From IMG/VR virus record IMGVR_UViG_3300041583_000385, positions 22,323 through 86,322 of that record: a stretch of 64,000 bases of DNA; one strand, 5' to 3'. The notes under the pieces were generated by a model. The model was not told the origin of the DNA and did not search any database. It saw only the letters and a list, made by a program, of their open reading frames with translations. The DNA is from a virus. Positions 364-60,867 of this stretch are shown here, piece by piece. Position 1 is the stretch's first letter, and each line of letters begins with the position of its first letter. The position numbers were made by a program, and so were the translations under genes.

Positions 364-576
364 CTATCTTCCACCATATTTGAAATTTTTATTAACCCAA
401 CCTACTGAGAAATTATTATATTCATTTGCATATAATATGTGATTTAAACAAACCATAACCTCTACATCCTCATTATCTACATAAAGTACTTCATAAGTTT
501 TACCCTTCTCGAAGAGTGGCATATTCATTATGTTCGTTATTTCATTTATACAAATTAATTTGTCTCCTTTTCTCAT
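364..576 (-). CDS. hypothetical protein (small beta-rich domain)
   Basis: 70 aa ORF, KGDKLICI...KGKTYEV pattern common in small phage proteins. Confidence 0.6.
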   Translation of the reverse strand: MRKGDKLICINEITNIMNMPLFEKGKTYEVLYVDNEDVEVMVCLNHILYANEYNNFSVGWVNKNFKYGGR

Positions 577-591
577 ATATTTTTTATTAAA

Positions 592-841
592 AAATTAGTA
601 TAAGTTGAGCTTACCCAACATTTTGCTTTATGCTATCATCTATCTATTGCCACAAACCCGACCATCAAAGGGGAACCGATACCCTAGGTCTGTACGTGTC
701 GCTACTTCCGTGGTGCTAACGACTATCCGAAGACCGCCTCCCACGTTAGGTTCAGTAGTGTCGAGGTTTCTCCAGTATCTCTATAAATGAGATTTACACC
801 CTTACGGGACCGGCGATAGCTTCTCTGACTTATACTAATTT
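592..841 (-). ncRNA. rnpB: minimal RNase P RNA-like gene (catalytic domain intact, S-domain reduced, no P18)
   Basis: GC-rich intergenic island. P1 14-bp inverted repeat (592-605/828-841); P2 GCUAUCG/UGAUAGC; P3 CCGGU/ACUGG; P4 ACC(U)CGACA/UGUUGGGU with bulged U; P5 CUAC/GUAG; CGGGU L15 motif; UAGAUAGAU (CR-IV-like); CAAAA...UA (CR-V-like). Confidence 0.85.
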
Positions 842-1311
842 ATTATTAATGCTAAATTATATTCTCTTTTTAATTTCATTGTCCAAGTTTCCACCTTCTG
901 TTTAACTAGGCGATGTAAACAATTATATTCTCTTTTATTAATTTCTTCTAAGTTACCAATATGTTTAGTAAATAATGACATTAAATCTTCTGGTGTCATT
1001 ATATCATTAAATCTACCACTAGGATCCAATAGGTTAATTTCGTTTATGAAATTAATTATAGGTAATACTTCATACCAGTTTTCACCCTTTTTATCCCATG
1101 TATTAAACCATTTACGTATAACTAAATGAAAATATGATTTATTTTCTAAAAAAAACTCATATGTCATATTTACCTCTTTTGGTTTAATACCAATATATTT
1201 ATCCCATTTTTCAATTAGATAATCTTTATCACAGTCTAATACTTTAATATCCATCGTTTGATGGAAATTAAATGTGAAATTAATAAGGTTATCTAATTGT
1301 CCCTTTGTCAT
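835..1311 (-). CDS. hypothetical protein with C-terminal tag (KREYNLALIIN)
   Basis: 158 aa ORF; ATG lies 5 nt downstream of a TATATTTG promoter element. Confidence 0.7.
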   Translation of the reverse strand: MTKGQLDNLINFTFNFHQTMDIKVLDCDKDYLIEKWDKYIGIKPKEVNMTYEFFLENKSYFHLVIRKWFNTWDKKGENWYEVLPIINFINEINLLDPSGRFNDIMTPEDLMSLFTKHIGNLEEINKREYNCLHRLVKQKVETWTMKLKREYNLALIIN

Positions 1312-1384: not shown

Positions 1385-2272
1385 ATGAAAATAAAACATA
1401 AAGTTATAAAAGAGTTTCAATATCTTAGTCCAGATAAGAAAATCTTCATATTAAAACTTGGTACTATACTAAACAACTATAATTATAAAATTAAAGATGA
1501 ATTGATATTAGTTGATAAAGATATAATTGATAATAATCCACAATATTTTCAAGTAGTTGATTGGAAAGAAGAGATTCACTCATTTATAAAAACAAATAAA
1601 TTACCATCACCAAAAACATTAGCTAATAAGCTAATACCGTTTATGGAGGATATGATATTATCATCTATGGCTAAAAGTACTGATACTGGTGCACAAGTAG
1701 ATGAAGATAGATTAAAAGAAATCGAAAGTAAAGAATCTGATTTAAATAATAGAGAGAAGAGAATTAAAAGTAAAGAAGAAGAACTTGAAATTAGATCAAA
1801 CAGAGTTGAGAAGAGAGAGGAAGATTATAGAGAATGTCTTAAAGATTTAGATAGTAAAGAAGATTCACTCAGAGAAAAATCTAAAGATTTAAAAGAAAGA
1901 GAATTGGATGTGCAAGATAAGTTACAAGATATTAACGAAAAGGAAAGAAACCTTGATAGAACTATATTAGAATCATCTAAAGATATCGATATTAAATATA
2001 CTGAGTTACAATCAAAAATTGATAAAGATTTAAAAACTGTTACTGAGAAAGAGAAAGGATTAGAAATAACCGCAAAGGATATTAAAAAGAGAGAAGATAA
2101 ACTCTTAGATAGGGAAGATGAAATAGATGATTTATTAAGAGATATAGAAAGAAAGAAAGAAGAATTTCAAGATTGGGGTGAAGAGGTAGTTAAATTAGAC
2201 CAAGAAATAAAAGATTGGGAAAAACTACATTGGAAGTTCAAAAGATTGAAGAAGCCGCCTTCTGCTATTTAA
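1385..2272 (+). CDS. coiled-coil protein
   Basis: C-terminal half has charged heptads (KExxLxxRE repeats); TTTATATATA upstream. Confidence 0.75.
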   Translation: MKIKHKVIKEFQYLSPDKKIFILKLGTILNNYNYKIKDELILVDKDIIDNNPQYFQVVDWKEEIHSFIKTNKLPSPKTLANKLIPFMEDMILSSMAKSTDTGAQVDEDRLKEIESKESDLNNREKRIKSKEEELEIRSNRVEKREEDYRECLKDLDSKEDSLREKSKDLKERELDVQDKLQDINEKERNLDRTILESSKDIDIKYTELQSKIDKDLKTVTEKEKGLEITAKDIKKREDKLLDREDEIDDLLRDIERKKEEFQDWGEEVVKLDQEIKDWEKLHWKFKRLKKPPSAI

Positions 2273-3306: not shown

Positions 3307-3647
3307 GATAACTTTTGTTCAGTTAATTTATCTTTTAATTTAATAAGTCCAAACATCTTAGTTCTTTGGAACGTTGGGAATTTATCACCATTCTTAACAA
3401 TCCATTCCATATCATGTAATCTTTTTATGGAATACATAACATAATAAGTAGTATATCTTTTTTTGAATTTTATTTGCATCCAGTTATTGAATAAATAACG
3501 TTTGCTTATTCTAACAAACCCTTCTCTTTTCTTAAACCTCTCTATGCTTTCTTTTAGATTCTCAATAACAACAGAGTATGAGTGACCATCCTCCAATAAT
3601 GCTTGAATTTTTTTGTCAATATGTTCTTCTATTCTACTTGGTTTCAT
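3300..3647 (-). CDS. hypothetical protein
   Basis: 115 aa ORF; TATATTTG 5 nt upstream of the ATG. Confidence 0.65.
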   Translation of the reverse strand: MKPSRIEEHIDKKIQALLEDGHSYSVVIENLKESIERFKKREGFVRISKRYLFNNWMQIKFKKRYTTYYVMYSIKRLHDMEWIVKNGDKFPTFQRTKMFGLIKLKDKLTEQKLSC

Positions 3648-3676
3648 AGAGACAAATATAAGGAAATAATATTAAT

Positions 3677-3997
3677 TTACCTAATTAGAGATACTGTCCC
3701 ATAGAATATTTTAGAACATTCTGACCCATAAGCAACAACCTCATAAAGGTAAACACCTCTTTCACACAAATTCCCATTATATAATCCATTCCACTTATCA
3801 CCAACAAAAACTAACATACCCCATCGATTATAAATTGAAAGTTTATAACTTGTATAAGAGTTTATATATGTTGGGTAAAACTCACTATTCGTGCTCATTG
3901 TTGGTGTGAAAGCATTTGGTGAAATTATAGTATCATTACATTGTGAAAATGTAAATATTGATAATAGTAATAGAATTGATGTTAATAATATTTTCAT
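3677..3997 (-). CDS. signal peptide plus stand-alone T9SS type-B C-terminal sorting domain (CHU_C/gliding-motility CTD)
   Basis: MKILLTSILLLLSIFTFSQC signal peptide; PNAFTP, IYNRWGMLVF, WNG, GVYLY, GTVSLIR motifs; start moved to ATG 3997. Confidence 0.85.
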   Translation of the reverse strand: MKILLTSILLLLSIFTFSQCNDTIISPNAFTPTMSTNSEFYPTYINSYTSYKLSIYNRWGMLVFVGDKWNGLYNGNLCERGVYLYEVVAYGSECSKIFYGTVSLIR

Positions 3998-4001
3998 AAG
4001 T

Positions 4002-4574
4002 TTATTTATTATTAGACCAGCCTCTTTTTTCAATTTTTCTAAAATTAGGCTCATCTTTTATTTTATCTAAGTATTTTATTAATTTAAATAGGTATGTATC
4101 ATCAGTATCTCCGTAAAAAGGAGGCATCTTAATAACATTACCATATGAATCAATATGCTCTGGTTTATCATCAACCATCAATACTCTCTCCATATCATAT
4201 CCCCTTTTACTCAATTTGGAAATGTTTTTCTTATACACATAGTGTCCCATTCCACATCCCTCACCATGGTCATATTGTGGTGTGCAATTTTTCTCACTAT
4301 AAAAGAATTTCAATTTAGTAACATCAATATTCATTTTATCAACTAAAAATTCAGCATAGTCTTTACCAGCCGCTGTCCAAATAGCAACATCATAATTTTC
4401 AAATGCGAACTCAATAAATTCTTTTAGACCTGGTCGAAACATAGTTCTATACATACCATCTAAAACATCAAATGAGTTCTTTATAAAATCATAACTCTGT
4501 TTACTTATTTCACTCTCATAAACTGAGTGAAATAAACATTCATCTAAGTCTAATATTAATAATCTGTTTTTCAT
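4002..4574 (-). CDS. NIF/FCP1-like HAD phosphatase
   Basis: LILDLDECL, RPGLKEF, IWTA..KDYA, MVDD, PFYGD.DD.L motifs. Confidence 0.88.
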   Translation of the reverse strand: MKNRLLILDLDECLFHSVYESEISKQSYDFIKNSFDVLDGMYRTMFRPGLKEFIEFAFENYDVAIWTAAGKDYAEFLVDKMNIDVTKLKFFYSEKNCTPQYDHGEGCGMGHYVYKKNISKLSKRGYDMERVLMVDDKPEHIDSYGNVIKMPPFYGDTDDTYLFKLIKYLDKIKDEPNFRKIEKRGWSNNK

Positions 4575-6565: not shown

Positions 6566-7699
6566 TTATTTAATTTTGTAAACTTCTTTTCTTATTTTAA
6601 TGATTAAATCATTAACCATTTCACCATCAACTTTTGTTGGTAAATTGGACTCTTTGTAAATTTCATCAATCTGTTTAATTTCAGATTCAACATCATCAAT
6701 TAAAGTTTGTAGATCAACTTCACCTCTTCTAATAGAGATAAGTTCTTTAGCATTATCACGTCTTGTAATAATACCCTTTCCTTCTCCTATTTCACGAGCC
6801 ATACCCATTAGACGAACACAGTGCATCATATTCTTACCATCAATTTTCTGACCGTGAGATTTAACATCGACCCATCTAGCCTCATTTCTTTCTTCTAACC
6901 AAGTTTGGTAAGAGTTATAATCTTTACAGTGTTGTGAATATCCATCCTTGTTATAAGATATATGACCAATGAAGTAATCACTAGGACAGTTTATTGGAAT
7001 TGAACTTAATCTAAGTTCATTAGATTCCTCAAATGCGATTCCTCTAAACCCTTGATTCTTATCTGAAACTATTTCAGGGAAAGGAAGTTTAGATAATTTG
7101 AAATCATAAAATAAAGCGTATGTATCTCTACTATGTGGTACGTTTGATAATCCACAAAACTTTTGATCCATTTTTTTATCTTCGAGTACTTGTGTGAGTG
7201 GTATAGACTTTTCACCAGAAAGTAGATAACAAAAATCTAATGGTGTCTTACGAGTTACTTTGTCTTTTTCCCAGTTTTGTTTTTTATTCTGACCCTTAGC
7301 CTTACCAATTTGTTGACGTGCATATCCACCAAATGAACTAGCACATCCTTTAGTGATAAATTCATCACGTTTTTCTAATATTTGGTCAAAAATAGGGTCT
7401 TTGTAGATAATACAATCCTCTGGTGTATTAAGTAATTCTAAAACAGTTGGGTTATTACTAGCAAGTAGACCAAGAAATCTACGAACTTCATAGATTACAG
7501 TATCTTGAGTATCATCATTGATTTGTTCTTTATAATTCACACCAAGAATATCATTCATTGGTTGAATAAATACACCAGCATAATCAGTATCAGAACTTTC
7601 AATATTAGTACCGTAAGCGTGAGACCCACGTATGACAAGGTAAAGAGGTTTTGCCCCTGGTGATTTCTCTTGTATTAATTTTAATAGTTCATCTTTCAT
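6566..7699 (-). CDS. Pol-beta superfamily nucleotidyltransferase (RlaP / T4 NrdC.11-like)
   Basis: GSHAYGT...SDTDY.GV, NNPTVLELL, KNMMHCVRL motifs. Confidence 0.85.
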   Translation of the reverse strand: MKDELLKLIQEKSPGAKPLYLVIRGSHAYGTNIESSDTDYAGVFIQPMNDILGVNYKEQINDDTQDTVIYEVRRFLGLLASNNPTVLELLNTPEDCIIYKDPIFDQILEKRDEFITKGCASSFGGYARQQIGKAKGQNKKQNWEKDKVTRKTPLDFCYLLSGEKSIPLTQVLEDKKMDQKFCGLSNVPHSRDTYALFYDFKLSKLPFPEIVSDKNQGFRGIAFEESNELRLSSIPINCPSDYFIGHISYNKDGYSQHCKDYNSYQTWLEERNEARWVDVKSHGQKIDGKNMMHCVRLMGMAREIGEGKGIITRRDNAKELISIRRGEVDLQTLIDDVESEIKQIDEIYKESNLPTKVDGEMVNDLIIKIRKEVYKIK

Positions 7700-7737: not shown

Positions 7738-9081
7738 TTATTTGAATTTCTTTTTCAAATCATCTAAGTCTGTTCTATACATATCTTTCGGATCAGTATT
7801 TTCCAAAATCTTAATTTCTTCTTTTTTATTAGAGAAGTCATTCTTTAATTTATCAAATAACTCTTTTGTTAATGAATATAATGGCATTCTTAAAAGATAA
7901 TCATACGAGTCATCAATCTCTTCTAAGCCCATATCTACAATTTGTGAAATTATTTGTGCTTTAGCGACATTGTTTATTTTTAATTTATCATCAAGTATAG
8001 CTTTTATAAACCTACCTCTATTACTTAATATCTTTAATTCTCTGTTTAACTTCTCAAGTTGATATTCTTTTCTTTTGTGATAATAAGTTAATCTAAAATT
8101 AACAAAATATTCAACAATCTCTTCACAAGTTTCAAATATTTTTAACTTACCAAACTCATCAAGAGTTGAGAATATTTCAGTAGAAGATTCTTCTAATTTT
8201 AATAACTTCCTAAGTTTGGTATCATCCAAATCTCCTAATATACTTCTATTAAACTTTATAGTATAATCTATATTATCTTTACAGTTATCATCATAAGAAA
8301 CAATATCCTTATTATCAGATAGTTTATCTAAATGTTCTTCATACTTTTCATAAGTCATCGAAGGTGGTAGTTCAGTTATTCTAACTGTTGATGTATTTAC
8401 TCTTTCAAAAGTTCCTCTTATTATCCACCTCTTATTATTTTCCTCATCTTGTATAAATTCACCTGTGAACTCAGCATATGATGGTTTAATAGACTTTATC
8501 TTTTTACCATCCAATACTTTAACACAAGAAGCTATTAGTTGTTCTACATTTCTATTTAATACATTCGATGCAAATCCAACAGCAATACCTGATGACCCAT
8601 TTAATAAAACAGTTGGTATTATTGGTAGGAAGAATTCCGGTTCGATTGACTCACCCTCTTCTTCCTTATAGTTTAATAATTCAAAATCTTTATAAATTAA
8701 TCTAAAATTCTCATTTAATTTAGTACCGATATATCTAGGTGCTCCTGGTTGTGGGGATCTAAGTGATCCATATTGACCATCCTCTTCTAATAAAGCAGCA
8801 TTGTTCTTGAACTTTTGAGCCATTGTTACAATGGAGTTTTCAAGTGATGTGTTACCGTGGTGATAAAAAGCATCAGATGCTACTTTACCAGCTAATTGAA
8901 AAACTTTTAATGTTTTTTCATTACCAGTTTTCCATATTTGGTTAGAAATATGTATAACTTTTCTTTGAGTAGGTTTAAACCCATCAATCACAGAAGGCAT
9001 TGCTCTACCTTCAATAGAATACATCGCAAACTCTTTGTATTCATCAGATAAAAAATCTGAAATCGTTTTTTCTGTCATCAT
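7738..9081 (-). CDS. DNA topoisomerase II subunit A (T4 gp52-like)
   Basis: DGFKPTQRK, YHHG, APRY active Tyr, NGSSGIAVG; short, lacks gyrase CTD. Confidence 0.95.
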   Translation of the reverse strand: MMTEKTISDFLSDEYKEFAMYSIEGRAMPSVIDGFKPTQRKVIHISNQIWKTGNEKTLKVFQLAGKVASDAFYHHGNTSLENSIVTMAQKFKNNAALLEEDGQYGSLRSPQPGAPRYIGTKLNENFRLIYKDFELLNYKEEEGESIEPEFFLPIIPTVLLNGSSGIAVGFASNVLNRNVEQLIASCVKVLDGKKIKSIKPSYAEFTGEFIQDEENNKRWIIRGTFERVNTSTVRITELPPSMTYEKYEEHLDKLSDNKDIVSYDDNCKDNIDYTIKFNRSILGDLDDTKLRKLLKLEESSTEIFSTLDEFGKLKIFETCEEIVEYFVNFRLTYYHKRKEYQLEKLNRELKILSNRGRFIKAILDDKLKINNVAKAQIISQIVDMGLEEIDDSYDYLLRMPLYSLTKELFDKLKNDFSNKKEEIKILENTDPKDMYRTDLDDLKKKFK

Positions 9082-11002: not shown

Positions 11003-12847
11003 ATGTCAATAGATAAGAAATTTAGAAAATTAGATGATATAGACCACGTTATATTAAGACCTGGGATGTATATCGGTTCTATAAAACCACACACAGCTAG
11101 TAAGTGGTTAATTGAAGATGATAAAGCAATTCAAAAAGAAATAACATATAATCCTGGTTTCCTCAAAATATTTGATGAGATAATAACTAACTCTGTTGAT
11201 GAGAGTAAACGAAAAGGATCTAAGCTTAATATAATTAAAGTAACAATAGATAGAAGTAAGAATTTAATATCTATTTGGGATAATGGTGGTATACCAGTTG
11301 TTAAACACGAAGAACATAAAGAATGGATACCAGAAATGGTTTTCTCAAATCTTAAAGCCGGTGCCAACTTCAATGATGAGGAAGAAAGATCTTGGGCAGG
11401 GACTAATGGTGTTGGATCGACACTAACAAACATATACTCAAATAAATTTACTGTGGAAACTTGTGATGGTAAAAACCAATTTACACAAACATTCAGTAAT
11501 AATATGAGAGATAGAACAACTGCTAAAGTTAAAAAGGCAACTAGAAGTCATACTACAATAACATTCGAACCTGATTTTGAAAAATTTGGAATGGATGGTT
11601 TAGATGAATCTCATTATAAAATGATTGAGAAAAGAGTATATGATTTAGCCGCTTGTAATACTGGTATAAAGATTTACTTTAATGGGTCTGTTATTAATTT
11701 CAAATCATTTGAAGATTATATAAAATTGTATGTTGAAGACTTCTTCTTTGAGACTAAGAAAGGTAATAGTTGGTCTGTTGGTGTTGCTTTATCAGAAAAT
11801 GGATTTCAACAAGTTAGTTTTGCTAACTCAACTGAGACCTATGACGGTGGAACACACGTTGATTATATAATGAATCAGATAATAGTAGATCTTCGAGAAT
11901 ACTTCTTAAAAAAACACAAAACAGATGTTAAACCATCTGAGTTAAGAAACCATATGTTCCTATTCTTAGACTCTACTGTTATTAACCCATCATTTTCATC
12001 ACAAACAAAGGAGAAATTAATTACAGAAATTAAGGATTTTGGTACTTCTTTTGAAATTAGCAAGAAGATGGTACAATCTATATTAAAATCTGAGATAGTT
12101 AACTCTATACTAGATTGGATTGAGCAAAAGAAAAATGCTGATGAGAATAAATTACAAAGAAATCTAAATAAAAAGTTATCTAAAATAAAGGTTGAAAAAC
12201 TTATTGATGCTAAGGGTAAAGATAGGTGGAAATACTCACTAGGATTATTTGAGGGTGATTCTGCGGCTGGTGCATTTAGAAAATATAGAGATTCTCAATC
12301 AATGGGAGCATTTGCTCTTAAAGGTAAGTTTATAAATGTTTCAGATATATCAAGTAGTAAACTTGTACAAAACACAGAAGCAGTTAACTTAATGGCCTCT
12401 ATTGGGTTGAAGTTGGGACATGATATTGAACTTAAATCACTTAGATATGGTAGAGTTCTTCTATATGTTGATGCTGATGTTGATGGTAACGCAATTGCCG
12501 CACTTTTAATAAACTTCTTTTATAAATATTGGCCAGATATGTTCGAAAGACGAATGTTATATAAGGTTGAAACACCAATTGTGGTTGCTATACCAAGATT
12601 GAAGTCACAAAAAAAGATATTATTCTATAATCAAACTGAGTATAATGAATGGGAATCTAAAAACGACCTAAAGAAATATGAGATAAAGTATAAGAAGGGT
12701 TTAGCCGCTCTTGTTGATGATGAATATGAGGATATTATCAATAATCCTAGACTAACACTCATAACCAAAGATGATGTTTCGGGAGATTCTCTTAATATTT
12801 GGTTTGGTAAAAGTTCCGCATTAAGAAAAACTGAGTTATTAAAGTAA
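11003..12847 (+). CDS. DNA topoisomerase II subunit B (T4 gp39+60-like)
   Basis: RPGMYIGS, EIITNSVD, DNGGIP, GTNGVG, EGDSA, DADVDG, KKGL. Confidence 0.95.
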   Translation: MSIDKKFRKLDDIDHVILRPGMYIGSIKPHTASKWLIEDDKAIQKEITYNPGFLKIFDEIITNSVDESKRKGSKLNIIKVTIDRSKNLISIWDNGGIPVVKHEEHKEWIPEMVFSNLKAGANFNDEEERSWAGTNGVGSTLTNIYSNKFTVETCDGKNQFTQTFSNNMRDRTTAKVKKATRSHTTITFEPDFEKFGMDGLDESHYKMIEKRVYDLAACNTGIKIYFNGSVINFKSFEDYIKLYVEDFFFETKKGNSWSVGVALSENGFQQVSFANSTETYDGGTHVDYIMNQIIVDLREYFLKKHKTDVKPSELRNHMFLFLDSTVINPSFSSQTKEKLITEIKDFGTSFEISKKMVQSILKSEIVNSILDWIEQKKNADENKLQRNLNKKLSKIKVEKLIDAKGKDRWKYSLGLFEGDSAAGAFRKYRDSQSMGAFALKGKFINVSDISSSKLVQNTEAVNLMASIGLKLGHDIELKSLRYGRVLLYVDADVDGNAIAALLINFFYKYWPDMFERRMLYKVETPIVVAIPRLKSQKKILFYNQTEYNEWESKNDLKKYEIKYKKGLAALVDDEYEDIINNPRLTLITKDDVSGDSLNIWFGKSSALRKTELLK

Positions 12848-15361: not shown

Positions 15362-15730
15362 ATGGGATTTATAAATTTAAACGGTCAACAAGTACACACA
15401 TCTGTTATAAATAGTGGAACTTCCTCAACAATAACCAATTCAAGTGGTAGTCTATATACAACCACAACAACTAATAATACATTTATATATTCACAAAAAG
15501 CTAAATATTTTATTTTAGGTGAGGAATTTGAAATTGAGGGATATCAAGACCCAACAATTGCTATGATGATAGCATGTATCAATATAATGGGTAAGCCATT
15601 TTATGATGATTTAGTTAAACAACAAGTTAATATACCAGAGGAAATAGATGAATTCATAAAAAAGAAATTCATAATACTAGAGAGGGACAAGAAAATCGAA
15701 GAGATTATCACGACTAGAAATCAAACTTAA
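15362..15730 (+). CDS. hypothetical protein, S/T-rich N-terminus, C-terminal tag (RDKKIEEII)
   Basis: 122 aa; AAAC-N18-TATA upstream (15330-15355). Confidence 0.7.
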   Translation: MGFINLNGQQVHTSVINSGTSSTITNSSGSLYTTTTTNNTFIYSQKAKYFILGEEFEIEGYQDPTIAMMIACINIMGKPFYDDLVKQQVNIPEEIDEFIKKKFIILERDKKIEEIITTRNQT

Positions 15731-26195: not shown

Positions 26196-28076
26196 TTAAT
26201 CTACTTCTTCAAATGGAGTATCCTCTACTTCACCCTCATCAGTTGATTCACCTGATTCCTCAGATTCTTGTGTTTGTTGATATAGTCTAGTGCTAATTGC
26301 TGACCAAGTTTCATTCAATTTCTCAGATGATTCATCTATCTTTTCAATGTCTTGTTCAGAATGTGCAGTTCTCAACTCACCAAGGTCAGAATTAAGAGAA
26401 GACATATCATCTTCTGTTAATTTCTCAGAAAACTCTTTAATTTGTTTCTCTGTTTGGAAGATTAAATTATCCGCCATATTAACCTTATCAACTTTTTCTC
26501 TTTCAAGTTTATCTGATTCAGCATTAACCTCAGCCTCAGATTTCATTCTTTCAATTTCCTCCTTAGATAATTGTGAACCACCTTCAATTCGAATTTTATT
26601 CTCTTTACCAGTAGCTTTATCTTTAGCAGAAACAGAAAGTATACCATTAGCATCAATGTCTAATGTAACTTCAACTTGAGGAATACCTCTTGGAGATGGC
26701 ATGATACCATCTAAATGGAATCTACCTAAGTCACGATTATCCTTTGCCATTGGTCTCTCACCTTGTAAAACATGTATCTCAACTGATGGTTGGTTATCTG
26801 ATGCTGTTGAAAACGTTTCCGACTTTCTTGTAGGAATTGTTGTATTAGCTTCAATTAACTTAGTCATTACTGAACCCATTGTTTCGATACCAAGTGAAAG
26901 TGGTGTAACATCAAGAAGTAATACATCAGTAATACCTCCTGATAAAACAGCTCCTTGAATAGCCGCCCCAAGAGCAACAACTTCATCTGGATTAACAGAT
27001 TTGTTAGGTGCTTTACCAATAAAAGCTTCAATAGCTTTTTGAATAGCCGGGATTCTTGTAGAACCACCAACTAAAATAACTTCATCAATATCAACCGGTT
27101 TAAGACCAGCATTTTTAAGAGCACTTTTCGCACAAGTGATAGTTCTATCTACTAACTTAGAAGTCATTTGCTCAAACTTAGCACTTGATAATTTCTTAAC
27201 AAAGTGTAAAGGAGTTCCATCTTTAGCTGTAATATAAGGTAAGTTAATTTCAGTTTGTGTTGATGTTGATAATTCAATTTTTGCTTTCTCTGCTGCTTCT
27301 TTTAATCTTTGAAGAGCCATAGGATCTTTTGATAAATCCATACCACTATCTGATTTGAATTCATCTATCATCCAATCAATAATCGTATTATCAAAATCAT
27401 CACCACCTAAGTGTGTATCACCATCAGTAGATTTAACTTCAAAAACACCATCACCAATTTCTAAAACTGAAACATCATGTGTACCACCACCACAATCAAA
27501 TACAAGTATTTTAGAATCTGTATTCTTCTTATCTAACCCGTAAGCTAAAGCCGCGGCAGTTGGTTCATTTATAATTCTTTCAACTTTTAGTCCAGCAATT
27601 TCACCAGCTTCAATAGTTGCTGTTCTTTCAGCATCACCGAAATAAGCTGGTACAGTTATAACTGCTCTTTCAACATCATGTCCTAAAAATTCCTCAGCCG
27701 TCTTCTTCATTTTTTGAAGAATCATTGCTGAAATTTCTTGTGGTGTATAGACTCTATCATCTATTTGGACACCAGGTACATTTTTACCAGTCTTCACTAA
27801 CTTATAAGGTACTTTTGATACTTCACCTTTACAAGCAGAAAAATCTTTACCTATGAAACGTTTAATTGAATAAATCGTTTTTTCTGGATTAGTAACCGCT
27901 TGTCTTTTGGCTGGATCTCCCACCTTTCTATCATTATCTGTAAATCCAACAACAGATGGTGTTGTTCTTTTTCCTTCCGAATTAGTAATTACAATAGGCT
28001 CTCCACCTTGAACGACTGCAACGCATGAATTTGTGGTTCCCAAATCAATCGCGATAATTGTATTTTCTTTACTCAT
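26196..28076 (-). CDS. dnaK: chaperone DnaK (Hsp70)
   Basis: [36 protein letters not shown]. Confidence 0.98.
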
Positions 28077-30799: not shown

Positions 30800-31666
30800 A
30801 TGATATTTTATGTATATGTATATTTGAATAGATTAAAACCGGGTTTTTATGATTATGGATCTGGTTTAGTTTTTAATTATGAACCATTCTATGTTGGTAA
30901 AGGAAAGCTAAATAGGTATCTATATCATCTAAATAAAGTTAGAAATAATTGCAAATACAATAAAAGTTTAAAATTTGATATAATAGAGGAAAATATAAAA
31001 AATAACCTAGATCCACTCATTATAATTATTCATGATAAATTAATTGAAATTGACTCCTTAACAATGGAAAAGGAAATAATAACTAAGATAGGTAGATTGG
31101 ATTTAAAACTTGGACCACTTACAAATAGAAATGATGGTGGTTTAAAACCACAAGATAACTATAAACATAATAAGGAGTCAAAATTGAAAATATCCGAAGG
31201 TGGTAAAAAAAGAGATCCTGAAAAAAGGTATAAATTAATATCACCATCCGGGGAAATATTTGATAATATAAAATTGTTAAATTTCTGTAATGAGAATAAT
31301 TTAGATTATCAAAAAATAAGAAAGTCCTCCAATAGGGGAATAATTAAAGAAATAAGGATAACATCTAAAAAACAATCAAAATTAAGTACACTAAATTGTG
31401 TTGGTTGGGAAGTTATAAATAAAAAATTAAGTAATTATAGTATTCGTGAAATAAAATATAAATTAATATCTCCTTTTGGTAAAGAGATATTAATTTATAA
31501 AGGAGATATTTTAAAGGATATATGTTTAGAATTAATATTAGATACTAGAACATTAAGATATTATAAAAATAAAGGTGTAATACATATTAAAAATAAAAAT
31601 CAATCTAATAATGAATCAATCAATTGTGAAGGTTGGGAATTTATTGATCCTCAACATCATCTTTAA
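30800..31666 (+). mobile_element. GIY-YIG family homing endonuclease
   Basis: FYVYVY...PFYVGKG..R..H, E..I..IGR..GPLTN..GG. Confidence 0.82.
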
Positions 31667-32900
31667 AAAAAAGAGATTTATCCTTTGACATTAACCAATC
31701 TCTAGCAATCATTAATTTCTTGGTTTTATCTAACAACCAACCTTTAGTGATATCATGAATATCTTTACCATTATCCAATGCCATCACATAACTAAAGTTA
31801 GGATCTGTTTTAAGATACCTAAGAGCATATTTCTTTCTATCACTACCCATATTCAAAAATATTTTATATGAGTCTTTTATCTCAGAAGATTTTTCATTTA
31901 ATGAATTCTTCACAATTGATATTATTTTATTAATTCTTTCATGTGTCTCAAACTCTTCCTCTGGTATTTGACCAAGTACATCATCTATTTTATCATCCAA
32001 TATTGTGGAGATAATAACATTTTCCTTATATATATCATCTGTTAGTAATCCATGAAGAGCTGTATACCAAGGAGTTTTTAGTTTGAAGAAGAAATCTCTA
32101 CCTTCACTATCCTCAGCTTGTACAATACAACCTTCTTTATCAATTTGAGTCGCAACTAATTCAACCAAACTATTCAAATCACCTTGGTGATCATCTTCAA
32201 ATGGTGCAATCTTAATTGAACCAATTTTATCTAAATGGTCTTGTATATCAATATGTTTACCAGTCTTATTATTTCTTAATCTAAGAAGTATTAAATCTTC
32301 ATCAGAATATCTTAATACAATTCTGTTATGAGTGGCAACATATTCAAATATTGGAATGATATCATTATCTAAACACCAGTTAACTAAAGCTTTTACCTCA
32401 GTGTTCTTAGAATATATTCTATTGATACCATTAGCTTGATCATTATCAAATCCCATTTTAGATTTACCAACAATTTTACCATTTGGTAATTTTACGAATG
32501 TAGCTATTGATCCATCTTCCTTATTATTAACATACTTTATTTTGTAATTCTTAATAACAGAATACATTGATTCTGGAACTTGGTTTATATTAAAGAACTT
32601 TTCAAGTAATACATATCTATTGAATAATGTTCCATCTTCATTAAATATGAAAGTTAATCCTCTCATTTCATAACCTTTTAATTCAGGTTTATGATCAAGT
32701 GGGTTAGCAAAATCTTTATATTGAGCAAGTCTGTAATTAAATACGGACACATTGAATCCATCAACTATCATCTTAGATTCATAAAAAGGATCATCATCTT
32801 TTGAGCATAACTCAACCGCTTCTTCATAAGAAGGTATTGAATAACCCTTATACTCTGAGCTTTCGTTTATAAATTCAAGATACTTAACTAATTTCTTCAT
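31641..32900 (-). CDS. rnlA: T4 Rnl1-like RNA ligase with N-terminal tag
   Basis: EMRGL, KFFNINQ, KEDGS (motif I), FEY, NRIV, EG, FKLKTPWY; starts MKKLVKYLEFINES. Confidence 0.9.
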   Translation of the reverse strand: MKKLVKYLEFINESSEYKGYSIPSYEEAVELCSKDDDPFYESKMIVDGFNVSVFNYRLAQYKDFANPLDHKPELKGYEMRGLTFIFNEDGTLFNRYVLLEKFFNINQVPESMYSVIKNYKIKYVNNKEDGSIATFVKLPNGKIVGKSKMGFDNDQANGINRIYSKNTEVKALVNWCLDNDIIPIFEYVATHNRIVLRYSDEDLILLRLRNNKTGKHIDIQDHLDKIGSIKIAPFEDDHQGDLNSLVELVATQIDKEGCIVQAEDSEGRDFFFKLKTPWYTALHGLLTDDIYKENVIISTILDDKIDDVLGQIPEEEFETHERINKIISIVKNSLNEKSSEIKDSYKIFLNMGSDRKKYALRYLKTDPNFSYVMALDNGKDIHDITKGWLLDKTKKLMIARDWLMSKDKSLFFKDDVEDQ

Positions 32901-41395: not shown

Positions 41396-42541
41396 ATGAG
41401 TGAGTTAAACAAAACGGACTTAATCAAAACCACATTTATTTATACATTATCCGATGATAGTGGAATAAGGTATGTTGGTAAAAGTAATTTTCCAAATAAG
41501 AGATATTATAATCATATAAAAACTTGTAATAGAACAAATACATATAAAAATAATTGGATAAAGTCACTTCTAAATGAGTGTAAAAAACCAATACTGAATA
41601 TTATAGATGAGGTACCAATCACAGAATGGCAATTTTGGGAAAAATACTGGATATCAAAACTTAGATCAGATGGTAATAATTTAACAAATATATCTATTGG
41701 TGGTAATGGATTAGGTAGTCATGGTTATAATACCAAAGAAAGAATGAAAATCAGACATAAAGAATTTCCAAATTATAATAGATCAGGTGGTAATTTAAAA
41801 AATGTTATAGATAAAGATTTATTATACCAACTTTATATAATTGAGAATTTATCAATAAATAAAATATCAAAAAAGTTAAAATTCGGGAAAAAGAAAATAT
41901 GGGATTCTCTACAAGAGTATAATATATCAAAATCAAAATCTGATTGGAAACATCAATTATCAACACAACCTAAGAAGATTGTTTTACAATATGATAAATC
42001 TGGTAACTTCATAAAAGAATGGATAGGTTTAAGTATAATACAAGATGAGATTGGTGTTAATAAGTCTAATATTTCTAGTTGTTGTAGAGGTATTGTAGTA
42101 AGTGCTGGTGATTTCACATGGAGGTATAAAGATGAATTTATAGAAATTGATACAGATAGGTTAAATTATCAAAAGAGAAAGGTTAAACAGTATGATAAAT
42201 CTGGTAATCTAATAAAAGAATATGACTCAATAAAAGAAACAATCTCAGATGGGTTTAATGATAGTAATGTTCAACTATGTTGCTCAGGTAGACAAAAGTC
42301 ACACAAAGGTTCTATTTGGAGATATTCAGAAGATAGTGCACCTAATAAATATAAAAACAAAACTATAAAATCTGTTATTCAATATGATAAGAATATGAAC
42401 AAAATAAAAGTATGGGATTCCATATCATCAGTGACAAAAGAATTGGACATAGGTAGTAATTCAATAACAACTTGTTGTAAAGGTAAATATAAATCAGCGG
42501 GTGGTTTCATTTGGAGATATAAATACGAATCAACTAATTAA
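41396..42541 (+). mobile_element. GIY-YIG homing endonuclease with three NUMOD1 domains
   Basis: FIYTL...YVGKS; QYDKSGN.IKEW...CC.G..SAG.F.WRY three times. Confidence 0.88.
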
Positions 42542-60731: not shown

Positions 60732-60805
60732 GCTCTCTTAGCTCAGTTGGTTAGAGCGGCGCGCTCATAACGCGTAGGTCAATGGTTCGAATCCATTAGG
60801 GAGCA
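60732..60805 (+). tRNA. tRNA with CAT anticodon (elongator Met or Ile2), CCA not encoded
   Basis: GCTCTCT/AGGGAGC acceptor, GCTC D-arm, GCGCG-CTCATAA-CGCGT, AATGG-TTCGAAT-CCATT; G1-C72 pair argues against initiator. Confidence 0.95.
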
Positions 60806-60867
60806 CAATTTTGAAATGCCTAACGATACAGACTTAGGTAAGTTTTTAAGAAATAATTCAAAATAAA

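Follow-up and report, generated by a model that had tools for sequence, protein, structure and literature searches.

Few ribozymes are universal; RNase P RNA is one of them, and its most conserved part is helix P4. In bacterial enzymes, the GGU of loop L15 serves recognition of the tRNA 3' end and the GCAA of junction J5/15 serves recognition at position -1. Reduced forms reportedly exist: the type T RNA of Pyrobaculum (RF02357), which Lai et al. are said to have described in 2010, is said to consist of the catalytic domain with almost no specificity domain and still to cleave pre-tRNA, and engineered bacterial RNAs that keep only the catalytic domain, attributed to Pan, Harris and others, reportedly cleave pre-tRNA with the help of the protein. 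Type T is said to be archaeal and cellular and to keep the consensus P4, while the engineered forms are artificial. Among viruses, camelpox encodes an RNA with a secondary structure like that of RNase P RNA, and this RNA was reported to have no activity in pre-tRNA processing (PMC3001073). Here, we describe a 244-nt phage-encoded RNA element that, judging from its sequence, is very probably a homologue of RNase P RNA. It lies on the minus strand at positions 595-838 of a 64,000-nt stretch of DNA (the window), which comprises bases 22323-86322 of the 86,322-bp IMG/VR virus record IMGVR_UViG_3300041583_000385 (CheckV completeness 12%), part of the genome of a huge phage. A preliminary description had proposed a minimal phage-encoded RNase P RNA at 592-841, for which the location and the strand were right and the interval was 3 nt too wide on each side. 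The identification itself is supported by a covarying RNase P topology, by a match of a divergent homologue in the phage record LR756502 to the archaeal RNase P model, and by genes for the protein partner RnpA in related phages.

The window is AT-rich (~25% GC), and the element contains a GC island (0.56 at 651-750 vs ~0.25 on both sides). Its limits were set by the arms of P1, which form an 11-nt inverted repeat bounding the element, and our models R1 and R2 align to it over its full length. The gene is intergenic, between an upstream open reading frame (ORF) of 158 aa at 835..1311(-) and one of 70 aa at 364..576(-), neither of which belongs to a Pfam family; the TAG stop codon of the upstream ORF (837-835) falls within the 5' strand of P1. 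Close copies were found in the phage record LR745206 (634,780 bp; 88% identity), in two IMG/VR contigs of 483 kb (G001) and 313 kb (G002), and in five contigs from metagenomes, one of which is 492,776 bp long. The close set comprises 8 copies with 5 distinct sequences. The metagenome scan had returned 8 loci, five of them true copies, all near known ones (L032, L034, L036, L038, and L039), and three chance matches (L033, L035, and L037). With blastn against phages at E <= 10, LR745206 was the only match besides 26 short chance matches. A further pattern scan of viral records gave solely the two known IMG/VR contigs, scans of genome contigs gave no true copy (one Chryseobacterium chance match had no R2 or Rfam match), and short exact hairpin or junction patterns mostly hit coding DNA by chance (L006-L009, L015-L018, L023, and L024). 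A repeated or mobile element was rejected, there being one full copy in the record studied here and one in each carrier genome. A weak second match to the 3' part of the element, at window ~15529-15603 (G000:C1:37851-37925, +), is probably due to chance (blast, 79% over 41 nt, E 0.003; R1, 9.6 bits, E 0.13).

The divergent homologue was reached via the protein. A tblastn search with the RnpA of the relatives led to a 51.6%-identical RnpA in LR756502 (642,428 bp), and this record contains a 217-nt RNA at 614633-614849(-) that is matched by R1 with 80.9 bits (E 2.4e-22) and lies directly behind a homologue (32% identity) of the 158-aa ORF. In a further relative, G003 (281 kb, 94% complete), the flanking ORF has a homologue with 40% identity, and both the RNA and RnpA are absent. 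The syntenic site there (G003/L014, IMGVR_UViG_3300036770_008729, 3470-4010) holds a ~160-aa ORF with a hydrophobic N-terminus and not the RNA.

We compared the window copy with bacterial type A RNA (RF00010; E. coli M1 RNA, encoded by rnpB), using the consensus and the structure line taken from the alignments of E. coli and Chryseobacterium rnpB. The order of elements is the same, P1-P2-P3-J3/4-P4-P5-J5/7(P6)-P7 followed by P5'-J5/15-P15-P16-P17(P6')-J/2-P2'-J2/4-P4'-P1', and the resemblance extends to UAGAU.(G/A)AU before P2' and to the presence of an RnpA gene in related phage genomes. The differences are that the RNA is phage-encoded, that its 244 nt compare with 377 nt for the E. coli RNA and 296 nt for that of Chryseobacterium, that P4 departs at 6 of 8 pairs, that P8-P14 are shrunk to one hairpin, that P18 is missing, and that there is no RF00010 score. 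Each named helix was verified base by base by script. All features given below are on the minus strand, RNA position n being 839 minus the window coordinate.

The 5' half begins with P1 (5' strand 823..838, n1-11 and n14-16; partner 595-609), whose 14 bp (11 + 3) are compensated at 7 positions in LR756502, followed by P2 (814..820, n19-25), in which GCUAUCG/UGAUAGC forms 7 bp with 632-638 and in which LR756502 shows 2 compensated pairs and 1 unpaired position. P3 (772..813, n26-67) is branched, with a CCGG/CUGG stem, a CCC-GUAA-GGG hairpin, and a second hairpin closed by AUCUC/GAGAU. Three of the four stem pairs and one of the three hairpin pairs are compensated, the loop is either GUAA or GAAA, and the second hairpin (14 nt) is unique to the window copy, being missing from all 7 other copies. 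J3/4 AGAA and the P4 5' strand ACC(U)CGACA come next (759..771, n68-80; the bulged U75 is window position 764), and the P4 3' strand UGUUGGGU (613..620, n219-226) forms 8 bp with n72-74 and n76-80. P5 consists of CUAC (755..758, n81-84) and GUAG (702-705), with 2 of 4 pairs compensated. J5/7 (746..754, n85-93) contains the 5' strand of P6, GAACC (749-753), which forms a pseudoknot with GGUUC (673-677) in the loop of L17. P7, CGUGG/CCACG (709..745, n94-130), is compensated at 3 of 5 pairs and encloses all that stands in place of the specificity domain. P8-P14 were looked for and are not present, the 31 nt inside P7 amounting to one UUCG hairpin, in which pair 102/117 is seen as AU, GU, and GC, and a 7-nt tail, GUUAGCA. 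P2, P5, and P7 have the same lengths as in RF00010 (7, 4, and 5 bp).

In the 3' half, the order is the P15-P16-P17 arm, AAUAGAUAGAU, the P2 3' strand, AUAAAGCAAAA, the P4 3' strand, an A, and P1'. J5/15 (699..701) reads CGA in the window copy and CAA in LR745206 and LR756502, i.e., C(G/A)A vs CAA in RF00010, the full motif being GCAA in both RF00010 and RF00373. The P15-P16-P17 arm (651..698, n141-188) has GGGUUU (654-659) on the 3' side of its internal loop, and 1 of 3, 2 of 4, and 2 of 4 pairs of P15, P16, and P17, respectively, are compensated. The GGU of L15, where the RF00010 consensus is GGGUa, is retained in LR756502 and thus in both lineages, and GGGU on the 3' side of L15 and the A after P4 likewise agree with RF00010. 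J15/2 (GCAAUAGAUAGA, 639..650) contains CAAUAGA, invariant in 6 of 6 sequences, and together with U201 and G202 reads UAGAUAGAU-G vs the RF00010 J18/2 consensus uAGAugAAU-G. We looked for P18 and found no hairpin between P15 and P2'. J2/4 (AUAAAGCAAAA, 621..631) stands in place of the RF00010 ACAGAA, which LR756502 has exactly. An alternative pairing in the minimum free energy (MFE) fold, ACAGACC/GGUUUGU replacing P15/P16, was rejected because the double change G157A + C167U in LR745206 and the changes in LR756502 fit P15-P16-P17. The preliminary description had drawn the same 14-bp P1, P2, branched P3 with CCC-GUAA-GGG, J3/4 AGAA, P5, and P6, and had noted both the reduction of the specificity domain to CGUGG/CCACG plus one UUCG hairpin and the absence of P18. 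All of this was borne out.

P4 departs from its cellular counterparts in sequence while keeping its pairing. The consensus P4 (AAGUCCGG / CCGGCUU), which is seen in E. coli and Chryseobacterium, is present in neither the window copy nor LR756502, whose strands read ACCUCGACA/UGUUGGGU and AGUUCAACA/(A)GUUGACU, respectively. The pairs beside the bulged U are AAG/CUU in the cellular references (RF00010/RF00373 consensus, E. coli, and Chryseobacterium), ACC/GGU in the window copy, and AGU/ACU in LR756502. The spacing is unchanged, with 13 nt from P3 to P5 and the U at position 8 in both the window copy and RF00010 (AGGAAAGUCCGGg). The earlier claims that P4 has 8 bp with its bulged U at the canonical place, and that both strands leave the consensus with pairing preserved, therefore stand. 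Since the sequence was swapped and the pairing kept, helix geometry, not base identity, would be what is conserved.

Next, we asked what variation says about this fold. The RNA is 88-97% identical among close copies, and the adjacent 158-aa protein is 65-66% identical; the RNA fold is conserved under strong purifying selection. Thermodynamics alone gives little support: the MFE z-score is a weak -1.82, with 9 of 200 shuffles folding equally well, and when the two junction segments were shuffled, a helix like P4 arose in 102 of 20000 cases and one like P6 in 2817, so that the case rests on comparative data. Outside the P3 indel, 15 columns vary among the 5 close variants. Seven of these are in helices (74, 222, 102/117, 105, and 157/167) and all 7 keep pairing, including a G-C to A-U double change at 157/167 in LR745206; no substitution breaks a helix. 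This variation within the close group is consistent with the fold but thin.

We then analyzed the 6 distinct sequences together (the 5 close variants and LR756502), with P4 and P6 written as pseudoknots. In this alignment, pairing is kept in 99.0% of 399 cells, with changes on both sides in 30 of 67 pairs, as compared to 5.7 ± 2.1 in shuffles, none of 500 of which reached 30. In a control in which partners were slid by 1-3 columns, 0-2 pairs were double-changed. Each of the 12 helices contains at least one double-changed pair, the pseudoknots P4 and P6 included. The covariance model excludes these two helices, so their pairing is not forced by the model structure, and RNAalifold, run with no imposed structure, predicts P4. 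The changes in P4 of LR756502 are C-G>G-C, C-G>U-A, and G-U>A-U, with one terminal A-U>A.A, and those in the close group are C-G>U-G and G-U>G-C. In all, there are 2 double changes, 3 one-sided changes that keep the pair, and 1 terminal mismatch, around a bulged U75 that does not vary among the 6 distinct sequences. In P6, GAACC/GGUUC has become CUUCU/AGAAG in LR756502, with 4 of 5 pairs compensated. At the level of sequence, we take this covariation to be decisive evidence for the proposed RNase P topology with both pseudoknots. It is also what the preliminary description had expected from related phages, with LR756502 as the main source of the compensatory changes.

The LR756502 copy also provides the link to known RNase P families. 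Among 4227 Rfam families, the sole match of its 241-nt stretch is RNaseP_arch (RF00373), aligned over model positions 1-288 with 24.2 bits and E 2e-5, a score far below the RF00373 gathering score of 84 bits. The alignment runs through P1-P4, P5, J5/15, the P15 loop, J15/2, and J2/4-P4, pairs up GAGGAA..UC, GCAA, AGGUA, UAG.C.AAUG, and AACAGAA, and skips the specificity domain (117 model positions vs 38 nt). The difference from the archaeal RNA is that the partner in the phage family is a bacterial RnpA rather than the archaeal protein set, and that the window copy is unmatched. Several motifs of LR756502 are near consensus (AGGAA, the bulged U, GCAA, GGU, and ACAGAA), and it reads AGGAAGUUCAACA where RF00010 has AGGAAAGUCCGGg, so that it forms a bridge from the consensus to the window copy (AGAAACCUCGACA; GCAAAA). 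Its Rfam match and motifs thus tie the family to RNase P, and together with the position-by-position agreement with RF00010 they point to a homologue of the type A catalytic domain. The preliminary description had likened the RNA to type T of Pyrobaculum; the likeness is functional, in that the specificity domain is absent, and does not extend to membership in RF02357, since the window copy matched none of the 4227 families, the best clan match of its homologue is RF00373, and the element is phage-borne.

A second line of evidence is the protein. All relatives that carry the RNA and are complete enough also encode RnpA (PF00825): it was found in LR745206 (E 1.8e-12), G001 (E 4.9e-12), and LR756502 (E 3.7e-14), and also in G004 (242 kb, from a sample shared with the RNA-bearing G002; E 1.2e-12). 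All 4 proteins contain KRAVDRNR(I/V)KRLMRE, which we take to be the RNR motif of bacterial RnpA, and 'Ribonuclease P protein component' is the best relative in the PDB (E 0.0042). RNA and RnpA are jointly missing from G003. A weak RnpA-like tblastn match (30.6%, E 7e-3) was also seen at 2282-2572 of MT836084.1, a 13-kb 'Bacteriophage sp.' from a human faecal sample.

These data bear on the possibility that the RNA derives from RNase P and has lost catalysis, serving as a decoy or regulator that binds, e.g., host RnpA or pre-tRNAs. Such a fate would fit the non-consensus pairs beside the bulged U, the loss of the specificity domain and P18, the failure of any Rfam model to recognize the window copy, and the precedent of camelpox, whose RNase P-like RNA was reported to be inactive in vitro (PMC3001073). 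The camelpox RNA differs in that it belongs to a eukaryotic virus with no viral RNase P protein, whereas the phage family has a covarying full catalytic-domain fold plus RnpA. A decoy for a host protein would have no need of phage-encoded RnpA, and the bulged U, the adenosines of J3/4, GGU, GCAA, and J15/2 are invariant or near consensus in two lineages, as expected of an active site in use. We therefore consider a catalytically dead RNA unlikely, and the RnpA-sequestering mimic offered as an option in the preliminary description is less likely given that RnpA is encoded by the relatives themselves.

We propose instead that the element is probably a catalytic-domain-only RNase P RNA of type A descent that acts with phage RnpA in 5' processing of pre-tRNAs. 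It would retain a type A-like catalytic domain (P1-P5, P7, and P15-P17, with the P4 and P6 pseudoknots), having lost P18 and the specificity domain bar the 31-nt stub, and would assemble with the phage-encoded RnpA. The catalytic Mg2+ would be held by P4, including the bulged U75, and by the adenosines of J3/4, the GGU of the P15/P16 internal loop would pair with the 3' CCA of the tRNA, and J5/15 would touch the nucleotide preceding the cleavage site. The predicted outcome is removal of 5' leaders from the phage's own pre-tRNAs, possibly also from host pre-tRNAs, by cleavage that would not involve reading of the tRNA elbow. Candidate substrates are at hand, since tRNA matches number 61 in LR745206, 30 in G003, 6 in G002, 4 in G001, and 2 in the record studied here.

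The substrate could also be something else. An active RNase P-derived ribozyme might have been retargeted to phage mRNAs, other noncoding RNAs, or host RNAs, chosen by other means. The domain that reads the tRNA elbow is indeed missing, the gene lies far from tRNA arrays and in both lineages follows one and the same conserved ORF, and the RNA is present alongside just 4 tRNA matches in G001 and absent from G003 with its 30 tRNAs. Set against this are the conservation of the L15 GGU and the J5/15 GCAA, and the 61 tRNA matches of LR745206. On balance we find retargeting improbable, and pre-tRNA processing remains the preferred reading.

A number of results weigh against an RNase P function, or against RNase P ancestry itself. 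The window copy matched none of the 4227 Rfam families even at E <= 10, an outcome that the preliminary description had itself regarded as damaging, and the LR756502 homologue is what rescues the reading; the LR745206 copy likewise gave no Rfam RNase P match (6.3-kb search), and in 6 phage records RF00010 gave no match at the element. In the reverse direction, searches with R1 and R2 did not find E. coli or Chryseobacterium rnpB, cellular rnpB giving hairpin-level matches or none, and the same held for 151 Bacteroidota genomes, where an empty result is uninformative. The LR756502 score lies well short of the gathering score, as noted above. One divergent sequence supplies nearly all double changes, which leaves two effective lineages, and the model that aligned the nested helices had itself been built on this structure. 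RnpA was not found in the 86-kb fragment that contains the window, which is 12% complete. With two pairs beside the bulged U off consensus and both P18 and the elbow-reading domain gone, catalysis cannot be taken for granted, and the tRNA-Met in the window (60732-60806 (+)) has no encoded CCA, its acceptor end being followed by ACAA. Finally, the RNA-library contigs described below are no proof of transcription.

Some of these results, namely the failure of Rfam models on the window copy and of R1 and R2 on bacterial rnpB, would be expected of a structured phage RNA that shares no ancestry with RNase P and has come to look like it by convergence. We regard convergence as very improbable, since a homologue matches RNaseP_arch end to end as its sole Rfam match (E 2e-5), the lengths of helices and junctions, as well as the junction motifs, follow RF00010 position by position, and the RNA co-occurs with RnpA. 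Other RNA classes were tried and rejected, with no Rfam or ARAGORN match to transfer-messenger RNA, a tRNA array, a group I intron, a riboswitch, 6S RNA, a Y-RNA-like RNA, or HEARO/GOLLD/ROOL.

Hints of expression came from RNA libraries, in which three contigs, one each from 3 libraries of 3 studies, cover the element: 274 nt on 589-839 (depth 34), 161 nt on 581-734, and 204 nt on 614-827. None of the three enters a flanking ORF, and uncovered parts in RNA runs carry no weight as absence. A further run (X2) had matches at 853-886 alone, with flanks unlike those of the window, and is uninformative. Small word shares were seen in 23 sequencing runs and were left out of any inference on habitat. 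The 274-nt contig (run X19) has the same 30 letters at both ends and closes into a 244-nt circle, in which the U run after P1 is joined to 8 nt upstream of P1. This closure may reflect a circular RNA, a head-to-tail template switch marking the ends of a ~244-nt transcript, or an assembly effect. A run of six U (589..594 (-)) directly follows P1 and is not conserved in LR756502. Upstream, a promoter-like TGGACA-18-TATAAT (856..885 (-), 11/12) lies within the end of the upstream ORF; sites of this kind number 9 in the region vs 8.0 ± 3.0 in shuffles, so this is weak. The hexamer is placed 17 nt before P1 in both lineages, as TATAAT in the window (856-861) and TATAAA in LR756502 (L042 ~1735-1740 (-)), and in both it also encodes a conserved Tyr-Asn/Lys of the upstream ORF. 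Copies of the L012 type have a spacing of 26 nt.

The same region could be read as a cis-acting leader or terminator of the neighbouring genes, or as a small mobile insertion with inverted repeats, given its position between two co-oriented ORFs, the terminator-like P1 plus U6 run, and the different ORF that occupies the syntenic site in G003. The element is nonetheless single-copy in each genome, its 'inverted repeat' is a covarying helix with 7 of 14 pairs compensated, the U run is missing in LR756502, and the RNA contigs are element-sized, which makes this reading extremely improbable.

The chances appear about even that the huge phages of this group own a complete holoenzyme, made up of RnpA and a 217-244-nt catalytic-domain-only ribozyme with swapped P4 pairs, whose RNA may be circular. 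If the proposed function is true, 5' maturation of tRNA would join the translation steps that huge phages bring along, and the RNA would offer a compact natural scaffold (217-244 nt) for minimal RNase P catalysis and RnpA binding. With a rewritten and compensated P4 in a catalytic-domain-only RNA that has its own RnpA, it would show how far a catalytic helix can drift. As a natural RNase P RNA with swapped P4 pairs flanking the metal-binding bulged U, it would stand alone in this comparison and would amount to a natural experiment in which P4 geometry rather than sequence suffices for catalysis. Annotation based on Rfam misses this class entirely. In a full-text literature search, we found no account of an RNase P RNA or an RnpA encoded by a phage, the camelpox RNA being the nearest. 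The largest phage genomes have been reported to cluster in a 'Mahaphage' clade with predicted infection of Bacteroidetes, and the main text of that report has 0 occurrences of 'RNase P', while its supplementary tables may list an RNase P protein (Al-Shayeb et al. 2020; PMC7162821).

The window also encodes two proteins of RNA repair, a T4 Rnl1-type RNA ligase at 31641-32900 (-) (PF09511, E 3.3e-21) and an RlaP RNA-repair nucleotidyltransferase at 6566-7699 (-) (PF10127, E 5.3e-21), which could bear on tRNA repair or on a circular form of the RNA. Further genes, at 26196-28076 (-), 7738-9081 (-), 11003-12847 (+), and 41396-42541 (+), encode a full-length Hsp70/DnaK (E 3.4e-247), topoisomerase/gyrase A-like and B-like subunits, and a GIY-YIG/NUMOD homing-endonuclease-like ORF.

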